Shown: positions 1-32,173 of the stretch, in pieces | Layout: the number at the start of each line of letters is the position of its first letter | Numbering within the stretch: the stretch's first letter is position 1 | Assembly: GCA_041656935.1 (NCBI GenBank) | Contig: JBBACQ010000003.1 | Coordinates: forward strand, 27,358-91,357 | Source: Patescibacteria group bacterium | GTDB taxonomy: Bacteria > Patescibacteriota > Patescibacteriia > Patescibacteriales > UBA12465 | Length of the DNA stretch: 64,000 nt | Direction of reading: 5' to 3' | Notes under the pieces: model-generated | The model's input: the letters and a program-made list of their open reading frames with translations, nothing else | Told to the model about the DNA's origin: nothing | The model's database searches: none | Made by a program: the position numbers and the translations under genes

Positions 1-3000
1 AGTTACACTCGCGCATTTCTAAGCAAATTTTTTCGTTAGTTTCTTGATCAATTGTGTAAGAATAACAAGCTAACCATTTTCCACAAACTCTATCCGGATC
101 AACCTTTAACAAGGTATTAGCGTCACAACTGGCCCCCGAACAAGTAGAATAATTTGTATAATTATAAGCATTAAAATTTAAAGGATTAATAATACCATTA
201 TTATAAGACCGCTCATTAAATAAAACACAACCTTTACTAAAATCGGCTCCTGAGCAAGAATCGGAATTTAAATTTTGTTTTAATTGATAATCAATCACTG
301 CTTCTCTAAGCTCAATTTGAGAATCAGGCTCTCCTATAAGAAATGTCCCGGAAGGTCTTTCATAAATAACCCAACAAGGATTATTATCCCCTGAATAAAA
401 AGACTTTTTATTATACCCACTTACATTTTTGCTAACCTTAACAAAATAACTAGAAGGAGCAACCGGAGATATAAGAGGATCTAAAAAAGTATTAGAAGAA
501 TCCAATTCATATATAGGATTAACACAAAATATTGTGGCATCTTGCTCTCCTTTAGTTTCCAAAATGTAAAGCTTATTATTTTTTATGTTTAAATTTTGTT
601 GATATTTAATATTTTGCGAACAAACAATTTCGTCATCATCAAGAGTGCAAGCACCGGTAATTTCTTCCCAAAAATCAAATATTTGACCATCACCATCTAA
701 ATCAAGGAAACTAGAATTTATAATAATATTAGAACCAAAAGAACTAACCGGATCAATATATTCTGTACAACCAGCTTGTTTTATCGGACAAAGTCCAGCC
801 CACTTAACTTTATTATCATCCTCAGTCGGTTGATCAATCGCCGAGCCTCCCCAACCAATTGTTTTTAAATTATCAACAGCACATAAATGATCAATATTAT
901 CTAAAGAGCAAGAAACATTAACAGCGCAATCACTATCAGTTACACATAAAATTCCTGTTCCTCCGCACCGATTAACCTTTTTCTTATACCAATTTAAAGC
1001 AGTTATTTCAGTTGTTCCCGAAACAATTTTTCCCGAACGCCATTGACAGACATTATCTCCGGGATCCTTAAAATAAATGGTGCCAGACTGACTACTGGAA
1101 TTCCAAGCGTCACAACCAAGCTCATTATTGGTACAGAGAAATCCATTAGTAGTAGTCGCCTTATTAGGATCATATTTCAAATAAGTATCTTGATAAACAT
1201 TTTCCACCAACATTTTTCCGAAAAGACTACAGCCCATATTAGCCGAGGAACAAGCCTTGCCAGTATCATAGACTACCGCCTGAAAAGAATAATTAGTCGG
1301 ATTATAAGAATTATAATTATTAGTTTTGACCATCATTTCACAACCGACGGCACTATCATCACAAATCTTAGAAAAATTAATTAAACTATGATTATTATTA
1401 AGACGATCACTATAATTTTGACAACCTAAATTGTAATTTTCAGTTTGTTGATTACCTAAAACATCAAATTTACAAATAGCGGGAACAGCCCAAGAATCCT
1501 TTATTAAATAATATCTATTACTAATTTCTAATAAAACAATATTAGCGATATAGACATTTCCTGAAGAATCAGAAATTTTGAAAACCAAATCTTCACCACT
1601 AATCACAGAATGATCTAAGTTTTCTAAATTAACCTGATAAAGGGTCCAGTCATCACTATCAGAAATTTGTACCCCCTGAACTTCTTGATCATCTTTATTC
1701 ACCGAACCAAACAAACTTTCCGCTGTTCCATCAGTAAAGTATATTGATAAATTTTCAGCTTGATTGCTTTTGGCTAAAAATTTAATTATATAGGAAGACC
1801 CCGTTTTAGCTAAATTACCAATATTATTTTGCATTTCATCTGTTAACAGAATTGAACTTCCCCCTTGACCTAAGGCTTCGGTGGTGCTAACCGAAACGTC
1901 TCCTGCCCAATCTTCTAAGCCATAATTAAAATCAAAGGAATCAACAATTCTAACACTATTACCGGAATTACCATTATACTCTCGACAACCATTAACACTG
2001 GCTGAGCAACCCTGTCCTTCCCCAGGGATAGATTTATACAAACAAGCTTTTTGAGTATTATCCCACCAACCACCATTTAGACAATGGTAACAAACATTTA
2101 AACCACTATCCCAAGAAGCTACTAACGGTTGTCCAGCTTGATTTAAGCTCAAACAACCAGAAGAGTCAGTATAGGCATAGTTAATATTCTTTTCAGTCAT
2201 CCGATAGGTTTTACAATTTGCTGAGCAAGAAATAGATTTGGAATAAAGAATATAGAAAATCTGACCAGCTTGATTATAGAACTCTCGACAATCAGAATTA
2301 TATCCAGGATCAGAAACTGGTTTATTATAAATATTTTGATCGCAGACAGTGCTTCCATTAATTTCATGTTGCCAAATATTAGCCGAAGAAGAAGTTAAAC
2401 TTCCAACGGTTAATTTAATATTTTTATTGGAACTACTAATGGCCTCTAAGCTATAAGATTTTAATTGATAACCACCACCACTAACACCTTCCCAAGAATA
2501 AAAATTTTCGCAAGTTCCTCCATCGGGCTTAATACAATGTTTTAAACTAGTGTAATATTCTTTACCCTCTCCACCAACAGCTAATTCATCTAAATTAGTA
2601 AATTCGGTACAACCAGATTGGCTAGCATTACAAGAAGTAGCCGAAGAAGGAATTAATTTTTCAATCGCTCTATTTTCAAATAAAGTATTTTTTTGTACAT
2701 AAACATCATAACCGACACATTGATTCGGACAATAATTCTTATCTAAAACCTTACCAGTAATTTTTAAATTATAAATCGAAGTAAAAGTTTCACAACCGAC
2801 TTCATCGTTATTACATAAACGAGCATATTTATAACACTCGCTCGGAGCATTAGTTTTTAACCTAAAATCAGTTGGAGAAACATAACAGATATTTTTTAAA
2901 TACTCCGGAATAATTTTTTCATAAATTAAACCATTGCCACGATACTCCGAATAGAAAGTCCCAACAGCTCCTTTTTCTAATTTTATATCATCGATATAAC

Positions 3001-5332
3001 AACTATTTCCATTAGGATTAATAGTAAAATTAACTTTATTAGAACCATAAATATCGGGGAAAGTATAGGTTAAGCTCTGATATTCAAAACCACCTGAATT
3101 ACTAATATTTTTAGGCAAGCTACCTCCTAAAGAGAAACTAGAAGTAGCCGTTCCCGAACAATAAGAATAAAAAGATAAGGTATAAGTTTCCCCACCGATA
3201 TTATAACTACTACTAGCAACTGTTATGTCCTCGGATAAAGAAGAAGAACTAGGAAGATATAAGGAAAGTTGACCAGTATAAAAATTAGTACTAGTAGAAT
3301 AAGAATCCCAACCACCAATACTCAAATCATCTTCAAAACTTCCATTTAATAAAAAATTATGGCCAACGCCTACGGCTGTTCTAATAAACTCTTGGCAACC
3401 CTCATCGTTAGCTGAACAAGATTGAATTTTATTGTTAAAATAATAAGAGCTGGAAATATCCCAAGTTACTTTTTTATTAAAAGAGTCATAGGTCAAGGGA
3501 ACAACATATTTTTTACAACCAACATTTTCCGCATCACAGCCTTCATAGTCAAGAGTGTTCTTTAATAAAGCTAATTTCTTACCGTTAGAAACACTAGTAA
3601 AATAATCGCAGGTATTATAAACTGGATCACAAGAATCTTCTGAAAAGTTCCAAATTCTTTTCTCTTCTAAACAATAACCATAATATTCACAGGTACCATC
3701 CGACCTCTCTTTAATACAGGATTGTTCGTCAGCACAATAATTATCAGACCGAGAAACAATAATCGGTTTAACACCAGTTTGTTGATAAATATCTTCGGCG
3801 ACATTAACCAATTGTTGACTAGCAATATGACCGCCGTATCCTTGACGTTTGCAATAATTTAAAGGCGCCTTTAGAACCCAATTAGGATCAATTAATCCTC
3901 GGCACCATAATGAATTTGAATCTTCCCCACCATAACCAGATTTAATAAAACCATCACTATAAGTTTCATAATCATCCTCGCTAGAAAAACAAGAAACAAA
4001 ATCCATTAAAGTATAGCGATAACCTTTATCAGTTGTTTTTTCTTCAGCTAAATTAAGAGCCTCTTCCCAACCCAAAGGGATAATACGAAACTTTCGTAAA
4101 ATAATTAAGGAACGATGATTAAACCCAGTGGTGTAATCAGAATATCTTTCTAAAGTCCAATCAGGATTTAAATAACCATTATCAATGGCCTCAATTACAG
4201 TATTTTTATTCTCAACTGCCTGTCGGAATTGATTATCAATAACACAATTATTCGGTCTCGGATTTTTAGGATCTAAACAAACAATTAAATCCGATAAAAT
4301 ATTATAATCAGCTCGAACGTTGAAGCGAGGTTTAATAACTTTTTTTAATGATTCTATTACATATTTCTGACCAGAGAATGAAGAGGGGTCAGAATCCGAA
4401 GAAGTATAATCTGGACCACCGTTGTCTGAAGAAGCATCCGGATCTTTTTTACCTAAATTTTTAACTATATTATTAAAAGCAGTTATTGCTAATTGATTTA
4501 AAAAAATATTAGAAGCGTCCACCAAAGCATTGCCAGTAAACTTTCCTAAATTTTGTACCAAGGCTGAGTCAGCTTGTTGTAATTCTCTCTCGGCCTGTCC
4601 GGGAGGAGTATCAGTTGTTCCACCAATATTTCTCAAATCTAACCAACCATTATTTATTTTTACCTGTTCTTCAATTTTTTCCTGTTCTTCATCCCCAATC
4701 TCGGCTGACCGACCAAAAAGTTCTAGAGCAATGGTAACATCATTGCCAGTTGGCTCAAACATATTGGCTACCTTGCTTAAATAGTCTGGACCGCTCATGC
4801 TAGCCCATTTTTCATATTCGTTCACCCAACTAGATTTTAATTCTTGCCAACCACACCTAGGAGCATAAAATTCTGGCTGGGAAAGAGCCACCAAACCTAA
4901 ACCCATTTTTACTTGAGTATCAAAACTAGGTTGACATAAATCAAATTGCCAATCTTTACTTAAGGTATCAATAAACTTACCAATTGCCGCATCTCTAGTT
5001 TTACTACCCAAATCGGTTAAATATTCTGTAGTAAATAATGGTTTTTGCCCCGCTTCACCACTACCAATCCAAGTAGCAACATCGAAAGCTAGAGTATTTA
5101 AGACCGATTGCAGAGTAGATTGAAAAGCCAAAGACCCAGCTTTTTTTAATTGGTCGGCCAAATCATCTTTGATATAATCAACAACTCCTCTAATAACACC
5201 AGTTGGTCCACCAATAACATCCGGGCCAGCCTGAACTTTGAAAGGATAAGATAGGGTTCCAAAAATAAAAGAGAAAATTAAAAAAAGAATTAAAATTTTC
5301 CCTTTATAAAAATTGAATTTAGGCTTATTCAT
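1..5332 (-). CDS. Giant secreted/cell-surface cysteine-rich protein, N-terminal >1777 aa; the gene continues beyond the window start
   Basis: Open minus-strand frame from ATG at 5332-5330 to position 1. I spot-translated three places: MNKPKFNFYKGKILILFLIFSFIFG at the start, SLEAISSSNKNIKLTVG near 2400, and CYSYTIDQETNEKICLEMRECN at 1-61. It has a hydrophobic N-terminal signal/anchor, is very Cys-rich, and contains NGSFEDD..GGW jelly-roll/CBM-like stretches. It is absent from the ORF track because there is no stop inside the window. Confidence 0.8.
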   Translation of the reverse strand, partial: MNKPKFNFYKGKILILFLIFSFIFGTLSYPFKVQAGPDVIGGPTGVIRGVVDYIKDDLADQLKKAGSLAFQSTLQSVLNTLAFDVATWIGSGEAGQKPLFTTEYLTDLGSKTRDAAIGKFIDTLSKDWQFDLCQPSFDTQVKMGLGLVALSQPEFYAPRCGWQELKSSWVNEYEKWASMSGPDYLSKVANMFEPTGNDVTIALELFGRSAEIGDEEQEKIEEQVKINNGWLDLRNIGGTTDTPPGQAERELQQADSALVQNLGKFTGNALVDASNIFLNQLAITAFNNIVKNLGKKDPDASSDNGGPDYTSSDSDPSSFSGQKYVIESLKKVIKPRFNVRADYNILSDLIVCLDPKNPRPNNCVIDNQFRQAVENKNTVIEAIDNGYLNPDWTLERYSDYTTGFNHRSLIILRKFRIIPLGWEEALNLAEEKTTDKGYRYTLMDFVSCFSSEDDYETYSDGFIKSGYGGEDSNSLWCRGLIDPNWVLKAPLNYCKRQGYGGHIASQQLVNVAEDIYQQTGVKPIIVSRSDNYCADEQSCIKERSDGTCEYYGYCLEEKRIWNFSEDSCDPVYNTCDYFTSVSNGKKLALLKNTLDYEGCDAENVGCKKYVVPLTYDSFNKKVTWDISSSYYFNNKIQSCSANDEGCQEFIRTAVGVGHNFLLNGSFEDDLSIGGWDSYSTSTNFYTGQLSLYLPSSSSLSEDITVASSSYNIGGETYTLSFYSYCSGTATSSFSLGGSLPKNISNSGGFEYQSLTYTFPDIYGSNKVNFTINPNGNSCYIDDIKLEKGAVGTFYSEYRGNGLIYEKIIPEYLKNICYVSPTDFRLKTNAPSECYKYARLCNNDEVGCETFTSIYNLKITGKVLDKNYCPNQCVGYDVYVQKNTLFENRAIEKLIPSSATSCNASQSGCTEFTNLDELAVGGEGKEYYTSLKHCIKPDGGTCENFYSWEGVSGGGYQLKSYSLEAISSSNKNIKLTVGSLTSSSANIWQHEINGSTVCDQNIYNKPVSDPGYNSDCREFYNQAGQIFYILYSKSISCSANCKTYRMTEKNINYAYTDSSGCLSLNQAGQPLVASWDSGLNVCYHCLNGGWWDNTQKACLYKSIPGEGQGCSASVNGCREYNGNSGNSVRIVDSFDFNYGLEDWAGDVSVSTTEALGQGGSSILLTDEMQNNIGNLAKTGSSYIIKFLAKSNQAENLSIYFTDGTAESLFGSVNKDDQEVQGVQISDSDDWTLYQVNLENLDHSVISGEDLVFKISDSSGNVYIANIVLLEISNRYYLIKDSWAVPAICKFDVLGNQQTENYNLGCQNYSDRLNNNHSLINFSKICDDSAVGCEMMVKTNNYNSYNPTNYSFQAVVYDTGKACSSANMGCSLFGKMLVENVYQDTYLKYDPNKATTTNGFLCTNNELGCDAWNSSSQSGTIYFKDPGDNVCQWRSGKIVSGTTEITALNWYKKKVNRCGGTGILCVTDSDCAVNVSCSLDNIDHLCAVDNLKTIGWGGSAIDQPTEDDNKVKWAGLCPIKQAGCTEYIDPVSSFGSNIIINSSFLDLDGDGQIFDFWEEITGACTLDDDEIVCSQNIKYQQNLNIKNNKLYILETKGEQDATIFCVNPIYELDSSNTFLDPLISPVAPSSYFVKVSKNVSGYNKKSFYSGDNNPCWVIYERPSGTFLIGEPDSQIELREAVIDYQLKQNLNSDSCSGADFSKGCVLFNERSYNNGIINPLNFNAYNYTNYSTCSGASCDANTLLKVDPDRVCGKWLACYSYTIDQETNEKICLEMRECN

Positions 5333-5361
5333 ATTTTATTATTTAATTTATTTGATAATTT

Positions 5362-6048
5362 TTAAAAACCCTCTAACGTTTCCTGATAAATTTTCATTAA
5401 ATCATCATCGCTCAATTGATCTAAATCATTTTGTGATAAACCGCCCTGCAATAACATTTCTCTAAGCATTTCTGGATTAATTTTATCGGCCTGAAGATCT
5501 TCTGAAAGATCAGTCTGATTTATTTGAGTTGAAGTGGTTCCTATTTCTGCTAATAAATTATATAAATCATCAGAACTTCCCGAAGAAACATTTTGCGAAT
5601 CTCCTTGATATAGGGAATCGGAACAATTTTGCCCCTCGGGACAAAGTGGATTAGTTCTATAAGTAAAAATTTCTTCGTAATCAGTTAGATCATCACCATC
5701 AGTATCTTCTAAATAAGGCGAGGTTCCATAAATAAATAATTCATCCCAATCTGAAATTCCATCACTATCAGTATCAACTAATTTTAATTCTAAATTACTC
5801 GAATTTAGATTTTCGTCTTTGTAACAACTCCCGTCGGTACAAATTTGCTGTTGGCTATTCCCGGCCAGAAGTCCCTTACTATAATCAAAAGGATTAGCCA
5901 AATTATGTTTAAAATTAAAAACCCAAATGATAACAACAAAAACACTAAAAAAAGACAAAATAATTACAGCCGTTTTTTGATTTTTTTCCATTTTTTTAGA
6001 GATACGGGATTTTCCAGAATCCTCATCTCGCCAACGGTTTTCTTCCAT
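5362..6048 (-). CDS. Membrane-anchored protein with Asp-rich thrombospondin-type-3-like (Ca-binding type) repeats
   Basis: TM helix AVIILSFFSVFVVIIWVF. Repeats DTDSDGISDWDE and DTDGDDLTDYEE. Lies directly upstream of the giant protein gene on the same strand. Confidence 0.6.
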   Translation of the reverse strand: MEENRWRDEDSGKSRISKKMEKNQKTAVIILSFFSVFVVIIWVFNFKHNLANPFDYSKGLLAGNSQQQICTDGSCYKDENLNSSNLELKLVDTDSDGISDWDELFIYGTSPYLEDTDGDDLTDYEEIFTYRTNPLCPEGQNCSDSLYQGDSQNVSSGSSDDLYNLLAEIGTTSTQINQTDLSEDLQADKINPEMLREMLLQGGLSQNDLDQLSDDDLMKIYQETLEGF

Positions 6049-22857: not shown

Positions 22858-24291
22858 TCAAAAATTAAAATATTTTTTTAATTTGGCTTTTAAACTCGTG
22901 CCCGTTAAACTTATCTCTATTTTTTCTATTTCTACAAAATTCTCCTCCCTTATTTCCGACAAAAAAGGAATTGAAAAAATAAAATGATAACCATCCTTAT
23001 CCACAAAAGCACCATTTAAATCAACCTTTAAAATAGACTCCCAAGATTCATCTTTAAACTCCGCTTTATTATATTTAGCTACTATAAAATCAAAATTTTC
23101 AATGTTTAAATCTTGATCTAACCTAATTAACCAAGGATCAAAAAAAGATTCTTCCGTGAAAGAAAATAAACCATTATTTTCTATCAATAAACCACTGGAA
23201 TATAATTTTAACCTATTTAATTTATCTACTCTATCCGAGATAGAGCTTACATTAAATTGCTTATAAATTTCATCTACCCAAAAACTTTCATTATTAATCT
23301 CGATTTTGCCTAAATGTTCAGAAGATAAAGCTTTTAGTCTAAAATTATTCTTCAGAGAAAAAATAGTTGTTTCCGAAGTTAATTCATCTAAAAACAATTT
23401 ATTTAAAAAAACCAACTTTGTTAAATTTGCCCTAATTTCATCGGTTATAATATTATCACTACTATTAATTTCTACTTTATAAACACCTTCCTTTAAATCT
23501 GGCAGGTCGAGAACAAAAGCCAAGGTATTATTACTAAAATTATTATCGCTAATGTTTTTTTCAAAAATTAAATCATTTGCTTGATAAACTCTAACTCTAA
23601 AATTTTCTGAGGTGGCTTCAATCTTCCTAAAAATAAAATTAATATTTAAAGCCTCTTCTTTCACATAAGTAAAAAAAGAATATGACCCTCTTATTTTATT
23701 TATTTCTAAAATATTTCTAGTCTGAGGTTCATAATCATCTAAGACAAATTCTCTATCGATGTCATAATTATAAAAAATAGTTTTAGAAAAATCATTATTA
23801 TTTATAAAGTCTGAGTAACTGGCAAAAATATTATTTTTTTGGAAAAATAAAACAGCTTCTTCTTCCTTAACTGACCATTTTTCCGATAAACTGTTCAATT
23901 TATTATTATAAACCGGATATAACCTATAATCCCAATTATTTTTATCAACCAACACCCCAGCCTCAATATTTAAAAAATCAGCTCGGCTTAAATCTTGGCT
24001 AATTTTATACTTTAATTTAATTTCAGCCTCATTGAAATGGCGAGACGTTCTTAAATTAAAATAAACTGGGTCACCAATTATCTTATTCTTATCTAATAAT
24101 CGATCACTAGGGCCGAATTTATGAAAGAAACCCTGACCGCCTAATAGATTAAAACTTTTTTTAGAAAAATCATAACTATAGGTTATTTTCCCTGAAGGAA
24201 CAACATAAAAATAAGCCAAAACCATTAAGCTGACCCCTAAAAAAGAGTATAAAAAAAATCTAACTTTTTTCATCTTTAAATTATGCCACAT
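22858..24291 (-). CDS. Hypothetical membrane-anchored extracytoplasmic protein
   Basis: Long ORF with an N-terminal TM helix (FLYSFLGVSLMVLAYFYVV); no recognisable motif. Confidence 0.5.
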   Translation of the reverse strand: MWHNLKMKKVRFFLYSFLGVSLMVLAYFYVVPSGKITYSYDFSKKSFNLLGGQGFFHKFGPSDRLLDKNKIIGDPVYFNLRTSRHFNEAEIKLKYKISQDLSRADFLNIEAGVLVDKNNWDYRLYPVYNNKLNSLSEKWSVKEEEAVLFFQKNNIFASYSDFINNNDFSKTIFYNYDIDREFVLDDYEPQTRNILEINKIRGSYSFFTYVKEEALNINFIFRKIEATSENFRVRVYQANDLIFEKNISDNNFSNNTLAFVLDLPDLKEGVYKVEINSSDNIITDEIRANLTKLVFLNKLFLDELTSETTIFSLKNNFRLKALSSEHLGKIEINNESFWVDEIYKQFNVSSISDRVDKLNRLKLYSSGLLIENNGLFSFTEESFFDPWLIRLDQDLNIENFDFIVAKYNKAEFKDESWESILKVDLNGAFVDKDGYHFIFSIPFLSEIREENFVEIEKIEISLTGTSLKAKLKKYFNF

Positions 24292-24349
24292 TTAAGGAAA
24301 AAAAACAAAAAAAGGCCTTAATAGACCTTTAGATAACTGCCAGAAAAAA

Positions 24350-24967
24350 CTAGGCTAATCGGAGTTTTTCTAGCTCCTTAACATTGTTAAGAAGCTCAAT
24401 AAACTTATCAAAAACTAATATCTCATTAGAGGCATTAGTTTCTGCTTTTTTCATTTCAGAAAAATAATCCAATAACTTCTTGTACTCCTTATTTTTCAGA
24501 AGACGGAAACACTTGCCTAATCTTTTCAAAGAACCAAAATTGGAATAGATTTGTTCTGCTAAAACCTTATTCCTTATTTTCTCGTTATTAGCGATTTTAA
24601 TGATTTTTTTGTAATCATATTTGTCCAAATTGGACAGCGCTAAAAGCCTTACTTTAAAATCCTTGGCCATGTAAGCAATGATTTTGAAAGATCCCATTTC
24701 TAGCTCATTAATCCGAGCTATCCTATTTTCTTCTTGCTCTTTCCAATGAGGTAAATACAAATCTTTATTATCATCTTGATTGTCCTGATTGGGAGCGATT
24801 ATTGCTCTTTCCTTAGATTTTAAATTATCTACTAAATCATTTGGAAGATAATTTAAAACTTCTTCCTCTGCCTCTCCTTTAACATTAATTACCAAGTTTT
24901 TTTTCTCTTCAATGCTAATTTTTTTCTGATCAGAAAAATTAATTTCTAATTGAGTCCCGTGTCTCAT
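24350..24967 (-). CDS. Hypothetical protein
   Basis: ORF with a strong GGGAGG Shine-Dalgarno and a TTGACA-17-TAGTAT promoter upstream (25000-25040). Confidence 0.5.
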   Translation of the reverse strand: MRHGTQLEINFSDQKKISIEEKKNLVINVKGEAEEEVLNYLPNDLVDNLKSKERAIIAPNQDNQDDNKDLYLPHWKEQEENRIARINELEMGSFKIIAYMAKDFKVRLLALSNLDKYDYKKIIKIANNEKIRNKVLAEQIYSNFGSLKRLGKCFRLLKNKEYKKLLDYFSEMKKAETNASNEILVFDKFIELLNNVKELEKLRLA

Positions 24968-25083
24968 TTTTTCCTCCCTTTTTATTATTAATTTTTTAAT
25001 GTTCTAAATAATTACATCTTATACTATCATATTATACTGTCGATGTCAATATTAAAAAAAGGACTAAAAAGTCCTTTCAAGAG

Positions 25084-25551
25084 TTAAATGTTTAGTAATA
25101 AGTAAACCAGAATAACTATTACTAAACCCGCCAGCATTTCTAATAAATTTTTTATCTTTATTCTTTTTTGGAATAAAGAAACGACTAGAAATAAAGACGG
25201 AATCAAAGAGGGACCAGCTATCACCATTATCCACCAACCAAAGTTGATTAATATAAATAGAGATAGAACCGCTCCGCCCGCTAGATTCAAGCCTAAAATT
25301 AGATACTCCTTTTTATTTTTCAAAAAATAAAACAAATATATAATAAGGAAATTTAAAACAGCTAAAATAAACAGGTAATAAATTAGGCAAGAAATCTTGA
25401 TAGTAGCCGGAATGTTTGGCCAAATTCTTCCGCCATCGGTCTGTCCATCGATAAATAATGGAATAGTTATTTCTCTGCTCTCCCCCTTGAGGAATAACAA
25501 TAAGAAAAACACCGATAAAAAAATTAGTAAAAAAAGAACTATTTTCTTCAT
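25084..25551 (-). CDS. Polytopic membrane protein
   Basis: Several hydrophobic helices. Followed by terminator hairpin AAAGGAC/GTCCTTT at 25056-25076. Confidence 0.45.
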   Translation of the reverse strand: MKKIVLFLLIFLSVFFLLLFLKGESREITIPLFIDGQTDGGRIWPNIPATIKISCLIYYLFILAVLNFLIIYLFYFLKNKKEYLILGLNLAGGAVLSLFILINFGWWIMVIAGPSLIPSLFLVVSLFQKRIKIKNLLEMLAGLVIVILVYLLLNI

Positions 25552-25617
25552 GATAAAAAGAACTATTTAATAATCTATTTAAACATAAAAATTTATAGAA
25601 GTCAACCAGGCAAATTT

Positions 25618-26166
25618 TTATCTTTTATCTTTCTCTGAAAGAAATTTTAAAACAAAAAATGCTAAAATTCCACCAATAATAGCAGTTAAAAATTGAAACC
25701 AACCCATAGTAACTGCTATTTTTCCGGCCAATTCTTTTTTTAATAATAGATTAAACAAAAGAGAACTAGAAATATAGAGGAAAGCAAATTTTAAAAAGCT
25801 GGCCGAAATAATTCCGAACCAATAATTTTTGTTTTTTAAATAATGGAACGATACTACTAATAAAATATTACCTAAAATAATAAAAGGGATAATCGGAGCT
25901 AAAGCCAAAGATAATATCCCGGTTGATAAGGCTATTAAACTAGGTAAAAAACTTAAAAGAATACCAGTTCTAAGGCCTAAGGTTATAACACTAATAAACA
26001 AAATGGCATTAATTATGGGTCCAGTTATTAATTGATGGCCTAAAAGGGGAGCAACTAAAGACAAAGACAAAAAAACAGAGAATTGTACTAAAGGGATAAC
26101 TTTGAAATCAATTAGTGACTGAGCTTTAATATTTTTCATATTTTGAAAATTAATTATTAACAACAC
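25618..26166 (-). CDS. Polytopic membrane protein (family not recognised)
   Basis: 5-6 predicted helices. The start may be the internal MKNIK. Confidence 0.45.
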   Translation of the reverse strand: MLLIINFQNMKNIKAQSLIDFKVIPLVQFSVFLSLSLVAPLLGHQLITGPIINAILFISVITLGLRTGILLSFLPSLIALSTGILSLALAPIIPFIILGNILLVVSFHYLKNKNYWFGIISASFLKFAFLYISSSLLFNLLLKKELAGKIAVTMGWFQFLTAIIGGILAFFVLKFLSEKDKR

Positions 26167-26245
26167 CTGCCGTAATTATACCATTTTAAAAATAAAAAAC
26201 AAAAAAAGGTGATAGTAATCACCTTTGATCTTCATTAGGTATAAA

Positions 26246-26665
26246 TCAAGAGAAAAAAGCTGCCCAATCATCGGGCGTAGGAGGCGATAACTCTTTATTA
26301 TACTTTTTTATTTTTTCTATTAATTCAGGATCATTAGAAAATTCCTTTCTCAGACAGAGATAGGCCTTATATCCCTTTTTTAAAATTTCTTTAGGATAGG
26401 AGTGCCCCCAAACATATTCTCTAAAAGGAATTTTTTCTTTATTTAAACAAAACCTGAGGTAGACCTCAGATAGTTCTTCAGCCAATTTTTCATTGACCTT
26501 TTTTAATCTTTCGTAATTTTTAGCTGAACCGGGTTTGTGGTTATAAAAATTATAAAAAAAATTACAATAAATACAAACGCCAGTAACATCTATAACGAGA
26601 AATTCATTAAAGGTTAACGGTTTTTGACTAAAATTCCGACCAAAATTTCCACGATTTTTACTCAT
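26246..26665 (-). CDS. Hypothetical protein
   Basis: ORF with its own TTGACA-17-TAAGAT promoter (26690-26725) and terminator hairpin AAAGGTGA/TCACCTTT (26205-26226). Confidence 0.5.
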   Translation of the reverse strand: MSKNRGNFGRNFSQKPLTFNEFLVIDVTGVCIYCNFFYNFYNHKPGSAKNYERLKKVNEKLAEELSEVYLRFCLNKEKIPFREYVWGHSYPKEILKKGYKAYLCLRKEFSNDPELIEKIKKYNKELSPPTPDDWAAFFS

Positions 26666-28473: not shown

Positions 28474-28735
28474 AATATTTTTATTTAGTTAGACAACGAG
28501 GATTTTAAAGGGTTGTCTCTCTTTATAAATCCAATAACGAAATTAATCGTCTCGAAAGCAATGAAATTATAGCATAATTTTAAAAAAATATAAAACAATT
28601 GTATTTTTAATACTTTTTGGGATAAAAAGATTATTAGCTTGATATTATAAAAATTGAGATAACTAGCTTTTGTAACTATTAATTAAAAATAAAAAACCCC
28701 TCAACAATAAAGATTGTAAGGGGTTGGGACTATTA

Positions 28736-31165
28736 TTATTTCTTTTTCCAGTCTTCTCGACTAGTTATCGCCTCAATAATCCGTTTATCATAATTATATT
28801 TCTTAGCAAACCGTAAAGATTTAGCTAAGGAAATAGCTTTCCAGTCCTCCCTTTTGGTAATCAAAAAAAACAATCCGGAAGAAGTCTTTTCTGCGAAGCT
28901 AAAAGCCTCTTCTAGCAATAACTTTTTCCATTCCTTGTTATCTTCAATCGCAAGAAAGATCAAAGCCGAACGGTCTGACTTTTTGAAAACATCCGACAAC
29001 AAATCAAGGGGGCAATCACTTCTCTGAATAAATTCACGGGCTATTACAGTGTTATAATCGTTCTTTTTGAGAATAACAAGCGCCTCTTCCAAAGAAATAG
29101 TCTCTTGACGAACAATCAATCCAAGATATAAAAGTCTACTGTATGAATTTTGACTCAAAAACTCTTTTTCTGCTTCTTCAACAGTAAGAGCTCTCCAATC
29201 ATCTCGCTCAGCCAAAGAATCAATTAAAGCGTCAGCCGAATACTTCTCAATGTAGTAATAAACCTGTGAAAGGGGCAATTCTTTCCAATCCTTTCTTGTG
29301 CTTATTCCTTTAAAAGAGCCAAAATAAGAATTTTTTGCTAATTCTAAGGCGTTTTCTAGGGGATTATCCAGTCTATTGACCACTGGAAGAAGGGCTTTTT
29401 GAATATTCTGATCAGTGGGATCCAATAGACCTAGAAATTTCAGGGCCAACTCCAAGGGACAATCCTTCTTCTCGGTAAGAGACCAGACAACTGGCCAAGG
29501 GTTACGACTCCAATCAATTTTGTTTAAGAAATCCATAGCTTCCTGAAAAGAAAGTTTTCTCCAATCTTCACGCTCAGTAATGACAGATAAAACATTGAGA
29601 TAGGAAACAGGATTTGATAAAAAATCGAAAGCATCCTTCAAAGAAATTATTCTCCAATCATCATGTTTATTAATAATAGACCAAAGATTAATTAATTCAT
29701 AATTTGTTTCTGCCAAAAGATCAACGATCACACGAAGAGGGGTATCTTTTCGTTCTGCAATACTAATCGCTGTAGACATAAAATTATCGCTTTTCTTTAA
29801 AATTTGCAAAGACTCATCTATAGAAGCGATTCCTGACTCTATTATCACATTAGCGAGACTATAATTATAAAGACTGTTATCGCCTCTTCTTAATTCGGCC
29901 AATTCCAGGGCTTTACCAAGCGAACAATTTTTCGTGGTTATAATCCTTTCTAAAACGTAATTTTGGTTTCCAGTTTCAGAAGCGAGCTTAATCGCCTGAG
30001 ATAAAGAAAGGCTCTTCCAATCTTCTCGTTCAAAAACAATCTCTAAAGCACCGTAAAAGCTTCCCGAGTTTTTACAAAAACGAAGAGCATCACCGAGTGG
30101 TAAATTTATCCAATCACCTTTTTCAACAATCTTCTTCGAGTCACCATCATAAAATTCTGGTTCATCTCCACGATCATAAATAATTGGAATTAAACTACTC
30201 ATTAGCCCGAGTAACCGAATCCTTTTTGGAATGTCAAAGTCTCTTCGCTCCTCAAAAGAAGCAAAAGCATCTCTACGACACTCAATTTCTTCCATTAAAG
30301 CAAAAGCTTTATCAAAAGGAAGATCGTTTCTCTTAATCAAACCTGAAACAGCTAAAACTAAATACTCCCGGCCAATTTCTTTACTCTCTTCCCTAACTAT
30401 TTCTAGCAACTCATAAGCCAAATTCAATGAACAATCTGATCGAGCGATTATTTTTTCAAAATTCTGAATGATAATATCATTAAAGGAATAACCCTTAACA
30501 TTATGAACAAATATCTTTCTCAAACCACTCAAAACATCAGAAAGTTTAAAGTCTTTACGCTTTATAACAGCGGAAGAAACATCCATCGGAAAGCTTGAAC
30601 GTCTTAAAATTATTAAGGCCTCTTGAATACTACAATCTTTTCTACTAATAAAAATTTTGGCTAAACAATTATTACAGCAAGAACCAATAGTCGTTTCTTT
30701 TAATATCTCCAAAGCCAAATCTTTTTTCATCTTTGTCCAATAATCTTTACGTCCAAGATTGTTAATTACCGAAGAATTATAACCAAACTCTTTAGAAAAA
30801 TTTAATAATTCTTCTCCAGTAAATTTGTTTAAAAATTTCTTCTCGGCCAAAATTTCCAGGGCTTCACTAGCATACTCCGAATAATCAGATCTTTGTTTTT
30901 TAGCCGTTACGAATAATGACAAAAATTGATTATAAGAAATTTTCCTAAAATTATCATTTTGGACAGCCGATTTTATAACCCATAAAATATCCTCTGTTTT
31001 TCCCAATAATTCCCACAAATAATGAAAAGAACAGTCTTTTCTTTCAATAACAACCTTAACGACTTCTGGGTCATAACCACTTTCTTCAACTAAGGACATC
31101 GCTCTTCTGATTGAGCAAGCTTTTTCTCTGCGACATAATGCAACAAAAAAGTCATTTTTTTTCAT
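28736..31165 (-). CDS. 809-aa all-helical tandem-repeat (solenoid-type) protein, unknown family
   Basis: Roughly 25 degenerate units of roughly 26-34 aa, in two flavours: R[ED]DW[KR]x[LI]SLxEA and RKDC[SP]Lxx[AL]L. Has an AGGAGG SD, a TTGACA-18-TATTAT promoter and terminator hairpin CCCAACCCC.../GGGGTTGGG at 28694-28730. Visibly more G+C-rich than neighbouring genes. Confidence 0.7.
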   Translation of the reverse strand: MKKNDFFVALCRREKACSIRRAMSLVEESGYDPEVVKVVIERKDCSFHYLWELLGKTEDILWVIKSAVQNDNFRKISYNQFLSLFVTAKKQRSDYSEYASEALEILAEKKFLNKFTGEELLNFSKEFGYNSSVINNLGRKDYWTKMKKDLALEILKETTIGSCCNNCLAKIFISRKDCSIQEALIILRRSSFPMDVSSAVIKRKDFKLSDVLSGLRKIFVHNVKGYSFNDIIIQNFEKIIARSDCSLNLAYELLEIVREESKEIGREYLVLAVSGLIKRNDLPFDKAFALMEEIECRRDAFASFEERRDFDIPKRIRLLGLMSSLIPIIYDRGDEPEFYDGDSKKIVEKGDWINLPLGDALRFCKNSGSFYGALEIVFEREDWKSLSLSQAIKLASETGNQNYVLERIITTKNCSLGKALELAELRRGDNSLYNYSLANVIIESGIASIDESLQILKKSDNFMSTAISIAERKDTPLRVIVDLLAETNYELINLWSIINKHDDWRIISLKDAFDFLSNPVSYLNVLSVITEREDWRKLSFQEAMDFLNKIDWSRNPWPVVWSLTEKKDCPLELALKFLGLLDPTDQNIQKALLPVVNRLDNPLENALELAKNSYFGSFKGISTRKDWKELPLSQVYYYIEKYSADALIDSLAERDDWRALTVEEAEKEFLSQNSYSRLLYLGLIVRQETISLEEALVILKKNDYNTVIAREFIQRSDCPLDLLSDVFKKSDRSALIFLAIEDNKEWKKLLLEEAFSFAEKTSSGLFFLITKREDWKAISLAKSLRFAKKYNYDKRIIEAITSREDWKKK

Positions 31166-31489
31166 TTTATACCTCCTGTTTTAATTATTTAATTATCAAT
31201 GTTTTTTACTAATTTTATTTTATTTTTAAAGATCTTTGATAGGGAATAATACCATAATAATATCTTTTTTGTCAACGGTTGGCCCAAATTCTAACCTAGA
31301 TCTTAATTATCTGAAAAAGGCTTTAACTTCCACCCAGGGATAAGGAAAGGAAAGCTTCCATCAGCCGATAGATAAACCCCTTGTCTCAGCTCTATAGATT
31401 AAATAATTTTATAATTATTCCGCCGGCTCACTATTATTAAGATTGATTTAAAAAAATAAAAAACCCGATTATTAAACCGGGTATAATTT

Positions 31490-32173
31490 TTACAAATTGC
31501 AAATAATTTTATTAGCGGCCATCTTAACGGCCGTTGGTAGCATCATCCATTCATACGGCAAAACCTCTTTCTGCAAAAGCTCCGCTGACTCTTCTAAAGA
31601 AACCTTCTTATGAAAAGCATTGTAAATTATGGATTTTGGTATTTCTACACTCCCAACGAGTAACGGCTCTCCTGAATCATATTCTAAATCGGAAATAACC
31701 TCGTGAACTGTTGGATAAGTAAAAAACCGATCATCTATGGATTTTCTGCCACGATGAATTAAATCCAAAATTTGCAATAAAACTCTTTTATGAACCGTTA
31801 AGCCATACATGCCATCGCCACCAAAATTTTTGATTTCAGCTGGATGAATATTATAAATGGTTACTCTAACAATAGGGGCAACTCTTACAATACACCCAAC
31901 TAAAAAAACCAATTTGCAATCCAGCTTTATTCTTTCGGCTAATAAAAGGCGATTAAAACCACCTAACCCGCACTCTTTCCGATCAATAACTAGAGTTTCA
32001 ATATTATGTTTATCAGCCTTTTCCAGGCATCCAGCACCATACTTGGTACTTATTAATTTTTTTAGGGATATATTTGGAATAAATCCACCGGAATAAGCCT
32101 CCATTATAGCGTTAGCATCAGTTCCGCCACCTGAAGCAATCAACATGGTGTTTACTTTATGATTTGAGTCCAT
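31490..32173 (-). CDS. PurN-like formyltransferase-family protein
   Basis: LIASGGGTDANAI (compare LISGNGSNLQAI), NIHPA (Asn/His catalytic pair), SDLEYDSGEP (Asp loop). Has its own TTGACA-18-TATATT promoter. Confidence 0.65.
   Translation of the reverse strand: MDSNHKVNTMLIASGGGTDANAIMEAYSGGFIPNISLKKLISTKYGAGCLEKADKHNIETLVIDRKECGLGGFNRLLLAERIKLDCKLVFLVGCIVRVAPIVRVTIYNIHPAEIKNFGGDGMYGLTVHKRVLLQILDLIHRGRKSIDDRFFTYPTVHEVISDLEYDSGEPLLVGSVEIPKSIIYNAFHKKVSLEESAELLQKEVLPYEWMMLPTAVKMAANKIICNL

Follow-up and report, generated by a model that had tools for sequence, protein, structure and literature searches.

A 64,000-nucleotide stretch of DNA from a Patescibacteria group bacterium (contig JBBACQ010000003.1, positions 27,358 to 91,357; "the window" below means this whole stretch) encodes a protein of 809 amino acids (aa) that is built over its whole length from helical repeats of about 30 aa. 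These repeats form an uncatalogued and very rare family within the known alpha-solenoid class, and we refer to them here as the RxD[W/C] repeat. The National Center for Biotechnology Information (NCBI) holds a sequence-identical entry, [quoted passage not shown] (MAG, metagenome-assembled genome). The array had been recognized in the initial annotation of the window, and repeat statistics, unit hidden Markov models (HMMs) and the all-helical models of AlphaFold2 bear it out.

The motif [RK]xD[WC] occurs 13 times in the protein, against 0.29 +/- 0.55 copies (maximum 3) in 5000 residue shuffles; Trp follows Asp in 9/16 cases, and Cys follows Asp or Asn in 7/13. When a unit HMM is trained on the C-terminal half alone, the N-terminal half scores 42 bits (shuffle maximum 6.7), and a unit HMM trained solely on unrelated short proteins, without any full-length family member (P0001 to P0010), finds 23 units between residues 3 and 805, with a total of 149.8 bits for the array compared with a maximum of 6.7 in 500 shuffles. 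Delimitation by hand gives 27 units. The figure of about 25 in the initial annotation lies within this range of 23 to 27, which is set by the criterion applied, but the units are not equally clear along the chain: Degeneracy is much stronger in the N-terminal third than elsewhere, and the clear C-type units there include those with the motifs RKDC42-45, RKDC175-178 and RSDC242-245. The distinction drawn earlier between units with Trp (W-type) and units with Cys (C-type) in the motif also holds, whereas their proposed alternation does not. From residue 342 onward, pairs of W-type units are followed by three or two C-type units, and the chain closes on three W-type units, the last of which consists only of helix B, the helix preceding the motif, and a REDWKKK cap. 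Similarity between units peaks about 4-5 units apart and again at 8, a hint that the array descends from an older super-repeat of four units (about 120 aa). Tandem repetition at the DNA level was not found in the gene, which argues for an old array and ancient repeats.

Column statistics were derived from an alignment (A2) of 64 units from the 809-aa protein and its relatives. They describe one unit in two lengths, a C-type of 28 aa and a W-type of 31 aa. The consensus of the C-type is h-h-x-x-I-[VI]-x-R-x-D-C-[S/P]-[L/F/I]-[E/D]-x-A-h-x-[L/F]-h-x-K-x-x-[Y/W]-x-x-x, and the W-type equals the C-type plus a 3-residue "W-K-x" insertion after the Asp. In this alignment, the C-type Cys falls in the column of the "WKxL" Leu and so occupies a hydrophobic position and not, for example, that of a metal ligand. 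Arg8 and Asp10 of the unit are conserved at 90% or more, and the units are about 13-52% identical to the reference unit. At the exposed positions 9, 17, and 21, Asp or Glu accounts for 41-62% of residues, and most family members are acidic to neutral (isoelectric point 4.3-6.8). Many members, the 809-aa protein included, terminate exactly at "R-x-D-W-[K/Q/E]-x", which suggests that the natural unit ends with the R-x-D-W turn and that this turn doubles as the C-terminal cap. It should be noted that the 28-aa unit also resembles two alike half-units of 14 aa, each a basic-x-(D)-aromatic/Cys stretch followed by a 9-residue amphipathic helix (e.g., "RKDC-SIEQALDLV" and "KKTDY-DTCVVVRII"; in the 809-aa protein, "KKNDYNTVIAREFI / QRSDCPLDLLSDVF / KKSDRSALIFLAI"); the repeat unit may thus have been born from duplication of a single helix-turn module.

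Structure was predicted with AlphaFold2 from a six-sequence alignment, and all structural statements here are predictions. For the whole protein, the model is all-alpha with about 60 short helices (mean predicted local distance difference test, pLDDT, 86.6; predicted TM-score, pTM, 0.52), and a model of residues 488-809 (322 aa) is likewise all-alpha (pLDDT 88.8, pTM 0.76). Helices in both are only 8-12 residues long, and DSSP assigns no strand of three or more residues in either. Mapped onto the unit, the DSSP assignment has helix B (h-h-x-x-I-h-x-R) leading into the R-x-D turn and helix A ([S/P]-h-x-x-A-h-x-h-h) following it; W-type units have in addition a one-turn helix at D-W-K-x. Around the W-type unit of residues 525-558, this reads as a helix at 519-530, a one-turn helix at 533-536 (DWRK) and a helix at 540-547; around the C-type unit of residues 559-590, helices span 557-565 and 571-578. 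The models thus give confident tandem helix-turn-helix units, the mark of the generic alpha-solenoid class, and fold comparison returns only solenoids, weakly matched. With Foldseek against the PDB, the full model matches CAND1, Ski3, exportins and importins, and IFT-A (TM about 0.1-0.23, root-mean-square deviation, rmsd, >20 A). Residues 488-809 match nothing below E = 0.047; their top TM-score (TMq 0.44, probability 0.97) is to 9evs_1v, chain 1v of a mitoribosome from a flowering plant, and ARM/HEAT proteins come next. Taken over both models, TM is 0.1-0.3 and rmsd 15-37 A for the HEAT/ARM-type matches. Among the predicted viral structures of BFVD, the best matches, all with E >= 0.047, are weak ones to poxvirus ankyrin-like proteins (TM 0.26 for the viral ankyrin-like matches) and to a phage LRV protein (TMt 0.42). 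An alpha-solenoid fold is therefore a well-supported prediction and very probably correct.

The initial annotation had set the array apart from TPR, PPR, HEAT, ankyrin, Sel1, and TALE repeats, and no curated model contradicts this. Neither Pfam nor NCBIfam matches the 809-aa protein at E <= 10, no family emerges from PHROGs or PADLOC, and among PDB sequences the protein has matches at chance level only (E about 2). At E <= 1, Pfam yields scattered chance matches both for 40 double units, with no family in more than two of them, and for five short relatives, with no PPR model; the Pfam PPR models PF01535, PF13041, PF12854, PF13812, and PF17177 match neither the protein nor the double units nor the short relatives. 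A profile of double units (A3) does find designed consensus PPR proteins among PDB sequences, with a full-sequence E of 3e-10; this score adds up 8-10 identical stretches, each worth about 4 bits (independent E about 360), which span only "LEEALELFEEMKE-KGIV". In local hhalign comparison with nine hand-written repeat consensuses, PPR ranks first at 10-16% probability and the others reach 1.5% at most. PPR is thus the nearest named family, but the period and the curated models speak against membership, and the profile similarity is too weak to establish it. In the literature, no paper was found that joins the term "helical repeat" with Patescibacteria.

Both PPR proteins and the RxD[W/C] array are tandem two-helix hairpin repeats of the solenoid type, helix A of the present unit ("sLEeAleLlek") resembles PPR helix B "LEEALELFEEMKE", and PPR proteins supply the best, if weak, sequence-profile matches; the best TM-score is the one to the mitoribosome chain. 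However, the PPR period is 35 aa rather than 28/31 aa, PPR helices are longer than the 8-12 aa seen here, PPR units have nothing that corresponds to the invariant R-x-D-[W/C] turn, and the present array has an acidic-to-neutral composition and no code-like positions. HEAT/ARM proteins (importins, CAND1, PP2A-A, designed armadillo proteins) share the elongated all-helical architecture; they are the top Foldseek matches of the full model and appear among those of the fragment. PBS-lyase (PBS-type) HEAT-like repeats have a similar period of about 31 aa and an Asp-containing turn. Against a place in this group stand the lack of any Pfam match, an hhalign probability of at most 1% to the hand-written HEAT-like consensus, and a motif of its own in two unit lengths (28/31 aa), compared with 37-47 aa for HEAT and 42 aa in three helices for ARM. 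Ankyrin and LRV repeats have equally short helices (8-10 aa) and a period of about 24-33 aa, but the TPLH motif and the beta-hairpin loop are missing here, as is a Pfam Ank or LRV match. TALE arrays are likewise long, uninterrupted, and made of two-helix units of about 30-34 aa; their repeats are near-identical and carry a hypervariable di-residue, whereas the present units are about 20-30% identical and have no such di-residue, no sequence or fold match to TALE, and no repetition at the DNA level. For TPR/Sel1, with a unit of 34 aa (36-44 aa) and the pattern W4-L7-G8-Y11-A20-F24-A27-P32, there is no Pfam match, and hhalign gives at most 1.5% to the hand-written consensuses. The suggestion of an mTERF- or PUF-like array found no backing in sequence or fold: PF02536 does not match, and no entry described as mTERF is among the top 50 Foldseek PDB matches of either model. 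The extra one-turn helix of W-type units is only a superficial resemblance to the mTERF unit (about 30 aa, two helices and a 3-10 helix).

A profile compared exhaustively with 1.84 billion representative proteins gave 22 matches, of which about 20 are genuine clusters. The two giant matches P0013 (5241 aa) and P0014 (3856 aa), considered as possible fusions with Ig-like He_PIG domains, were rejected as repeat-amplified false positives: They are beta-rich Thr/Asp/Val repeat proteins in which He_PIG domains are present and the unit HMM gives no match. Genuine members are of two kinds. The first comprises collinear orthologs of 789-818 aa with 26-61% identity, in which unit number and order are constant down to 26% identity; the second comprises short proteins (117-430 aa) whose repeats are very regular. 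Named sources of the long form are all Patescibacteria save one. This exception is P0009, a 587-aa partial ortholog on a 2.6-kb contig of a MAG that NCBI lists as "Candidatus Aquicultor sp."; because the other named relatives are all Patescibacteria, the contig may have been binned wrongly and need not point to a second phylum. Among 185,579 species, each covered by a single representative genome, a detectable relative was found in a single Patescibacteria MAG, and word-indexed homolog searches with the double-unit alignment A3 and the regular-repeat protein P0011 added no new relatives. Invariant residues among the orthologs fall almost entirely on motif or core positions. Between-repeat entropy is highest at positions 3, 9, 13, 17, 21, and 24, where identity among orthologs is lowest (0.23-0.40; mean 0.50), and no position is variable among repeats yet conserved among orthologs in the way of PPR, TALE, or PUF specificity positions.

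Our preferred reading, held tentatively and at somewhat less than even odds, is that the protein serves in the cytoplasm as an alpha-solenoid scaffold or adaptor for one or more protein partners and represents an undescribed repeat family. The 809-aa chain would form a solenoid of about 25 two-helix RxD[W/C] repeats, each consisting of helix A, a short loop (K-x-x-aromatic), helix B, and a tight turn with the invariant Arg-x-Asp, into which W-type units would insert an extra one-turn helix (W-K-x). The conserved residues would be structural, forming the hydrophobic core and the Ser/Pro helix N-cap, with the Arg/Asp pair probably tying neighboring turns. The remaining, presumably exposed, positions differ from repeat to repeat and would create a long non-repetitive surface. 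Since unit number and order are kept across the deeply diverged orthologs, we read the protein as a fixed scaffold that probably holds specific proteins, rather than a fast-evolving effector or a modular reader of nucleic acids. A cytoplasmic location would agree with the N-terminus, which is itself a repeat unit, and with the sequence as read by eye, in which no signal peptide or transmembrane segment is visible. Several points weigh against this assignment of function. "Scaffold" is the default reading for any alpha-solenoid and is hence weakly informative, no relative carries a functional domain fused to the repeat, the neighborhood offers no functional clue, the structure is a prediction from six sequences only, and conservation is spread evenly, so that no stretch stands out as a binding hot spot.

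A modular nucleic-acid binder of the PPR, TALE, PUF, or mTERF kind, in which each repeat touches one or a few nucleotides, was the role the initial annotation had considered conceivable. The long array with its fixed unit number and order would suit it, as would the consensus PPR proteins as best PDB sequence matches of the repeat profile, the first rank of PPR in hhalign, and the mitoribosome chain as top TM-score of the C-terminal model. We nevertheless judge this role improbable: The PPR likeness is a sub-significant one of a single helix, Pfam PPR, mTERF, PUF, and TAL models find nothing, the period is not 35 aa, the members are mostly acidic to neutral with Asp/Glu enriched at exposed positions, no position has the profile of a code, and the long form is not linked to RNA or DNA genes. 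An extended version, in which the RxD[W/C] repeat is a new, distantly PPR-like class of programmable reader whose 27 long-form units track along RNA or DNA (or unfolded polypeptide) and whose short forms between topA and relA/spoT read a shorter target, seems to us a long shot.

Patescibacteria are largely episymbionts, and ankyrin, TPR, and Sel1 repeat proteins are common effectors of symbionts. Given this background, the protein could be exported non-classically to bind components of the host cell, and both the restriction of the family to very few lineages and the differing repeat number of short relatives (117, 226, and 295 aa) at one syntenic slot would fit such a role. No signal peptide or linkage to a secretion system was seen, however, and the length and unit order of the long form are strictly kept over deep divergence, unlike in typical fast-evolving effectors; the G+C content is not anomalous and the flanks are housekeeping genes, including those for ProRS and a ThrRS-like protein, so that we regard an effector as quite unlikely. 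Alternatively, the protein may be a structural, cytoskeleton-like element that assembles with itself, or a chaperone or assembly factor (e.g., for ribosome or pili) whose solenoid wraps around its client. This unlikely alternative draws on a large, conserved, single-copy gene in a reduced genome of the 1-Mb class, which would imply an important role of the housekeeping type, on uniform conservation over the whole length, and on fold matches that include the assembly factors and adaptors CAND1, Hsm3, and RRP12. A core housekeeping factor should range more widely than about 20 clusters in 1.84 billion proteins and one match among the representative genomes of 185,579 species, and no linkage to ribosome, pili, or like complexes was seen.

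The gene of the 809-aa protein looks monocistronic: It has its own promoter candidate, Shine-Dalgarno sequence, and terminator-like hairpin (table 1), and the gene upstream carries a terminator-like hairpin of its own. The start codon is the first ATG of the open reading frame (ORF), with an in-frame stop five codons earlier. The promoter candidate, identified by consensus match alone, agrees at 11 of 12 hexamer positions and has a TG before the -10 element. The terminator-like hairpin, overlooked by a pattern scanner, has a predicted energy of -14.4 kcal/mol (z = -3.3 compared with shuffles). The G+C content of the gene, described initially as visibly elevated and as a sign of acquisition, is higher only marginally (0.344 compared with an ORF mean of 0.311, standard deviation 0.031; z = 1.07, rank 8/46; z = 1.5 for third codon positions). 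At about one standard deviation above the genes of the window, this lends no support to acquisition, and the collinear orthologs found lie in ordinary chromosomal contexts of MAGs that, where named, are Patescibacteria.

Table 1. Coordinates of the repeat gene, its parts and signals (positions in the window), and of short family members (positions in their loci).
Feature	Coordinates	Strand	Remarks
Coding sequence of the 809-aa repeat protein	28736..31165	-	ORF; entered at NCBI as WC928_01705
Residues 5-341, about 11 degenerate units of 20-42 aa each	30143..31153	-	N-terminal third to 40%; boundaries approximate
Residues 342-809, 16 regular units of 26-34 aa	28739..30142	-	Unit order WWCCC, WWCC, WWCC, then WWW to the end
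Example of W-type unit, residues 525-558: VLSVITEREDWRKLSFQEAMDFLNKIDWSRNPWP	29492..29593	-	Unit HMM and DSSP
Example of C-type unit, residues 559-590: VVWSLTEKKDCPLELALKFLGLLDPTDQNIQK	29396..29491	-	Unit HMM and DSSP
Shine-Dalgarno sequence AGGAGG	31172..31177	-	6 nt ahead of the ATG at 31165; read directly
Sigma-70-like promoter candidate: TTGACA, 18-nt spacer, TG-extended TATTAT	31246..31275	-	About 80 nt upstream of the ATG
Intrinsic-terminator-like hairpin and U-run	28689..28725	-	11 nt past the stop codon
Short member, 226 aa	L006:2875-3555		topA-relA/spoT slot
Short member, 295 aa	L011:7001-7888		topA-relA/spoT slot
Short member, 117 aa	L013:8001-8354		topA-relA/spoT slot

In the window, the neighbors are housekeeping genes, with an archaeal-type ProRS gene downstream and genes for a formyltransferase-like protein and a class-II ThrRS-like aminoacyl-tRNA synthetase upstream. 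No operon partner of the long form is conserved across the six loci compared. The only neighbor shared between them, in 3/6 loci, is the 227-aa formyltransferase-like gene, which was discarded as a partner: It is adjacent in the window only and about 3-3.6 kb away elsewhere. This gene (31490..32173, minus strand), directly upstream in the window, has no Pfam match at E <= 0.001 and is slightly G+C-rich (0.365); it is homologous to genes called Formyl_trans_N in the locus L009 and to a gene of the locus L012, each 3-3.6 kb from the repeat gene. In L009, the ortholog P0008 has upstream of it a defense-type cluster (169-5396; AAA_15/AAA_21 ATPase, Imm_superinfect, NERD, GmrSD), whose position is probably coincidental because the other loci lack it. 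The short members of table 1 are three divergent proteins encoded at one slot, which has topA on one side and relA/spoT on the other, with dprA and parB as further flanking genes; the member in L013 has the same orientation as topA and relA, and those in L006 and L011 run the other way. Members at this slot clearly differ in their number of repeats, whereas the form of about 800 aa is fixed. A phage context for another short member, P0015, was dismissed, as PHROGs matches 0/9 of its neighbors. None of the other ORFs of the window or of 17 fetched loci contains the RxD[W/C] repeat, so there are no paralogs in them. Elsewhere in the window, an ORF of more than 1770 codons (2..5335, minus strand), which runs past the left end and is without the repeat, and a run of five ORFs (22858..26665, minus strand) were noted; four of the five (477, 205, 155, and 139 aa) have no Pfam family, two being membrane-embedded as judged by eye, and the fifth has a weak match to an ECF-transporter S-component.

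Patescibacteria have very small genomes with a large share of genes without assigned function. For such a genome, a protein of 809 aa that stays collinear over deep divergence is a sizeable investment and is likely to be important to the biology of the clade. The module of 28/31 aa is clean, easily recognized, and absent from the copies of Pfam, NCBIfam, PHROGs, and PADLOC that were searched, and defining the RxD[W/C] repeat would allow the few other proteins that carry it to be annotated. Its compact two-helix unit with unusually short helices would also add to the natural solenoid scaffolds available to protein designers. For now the practical yield is small: the definition of a new family and a target for structural genomics, with no new mechanism indicated.

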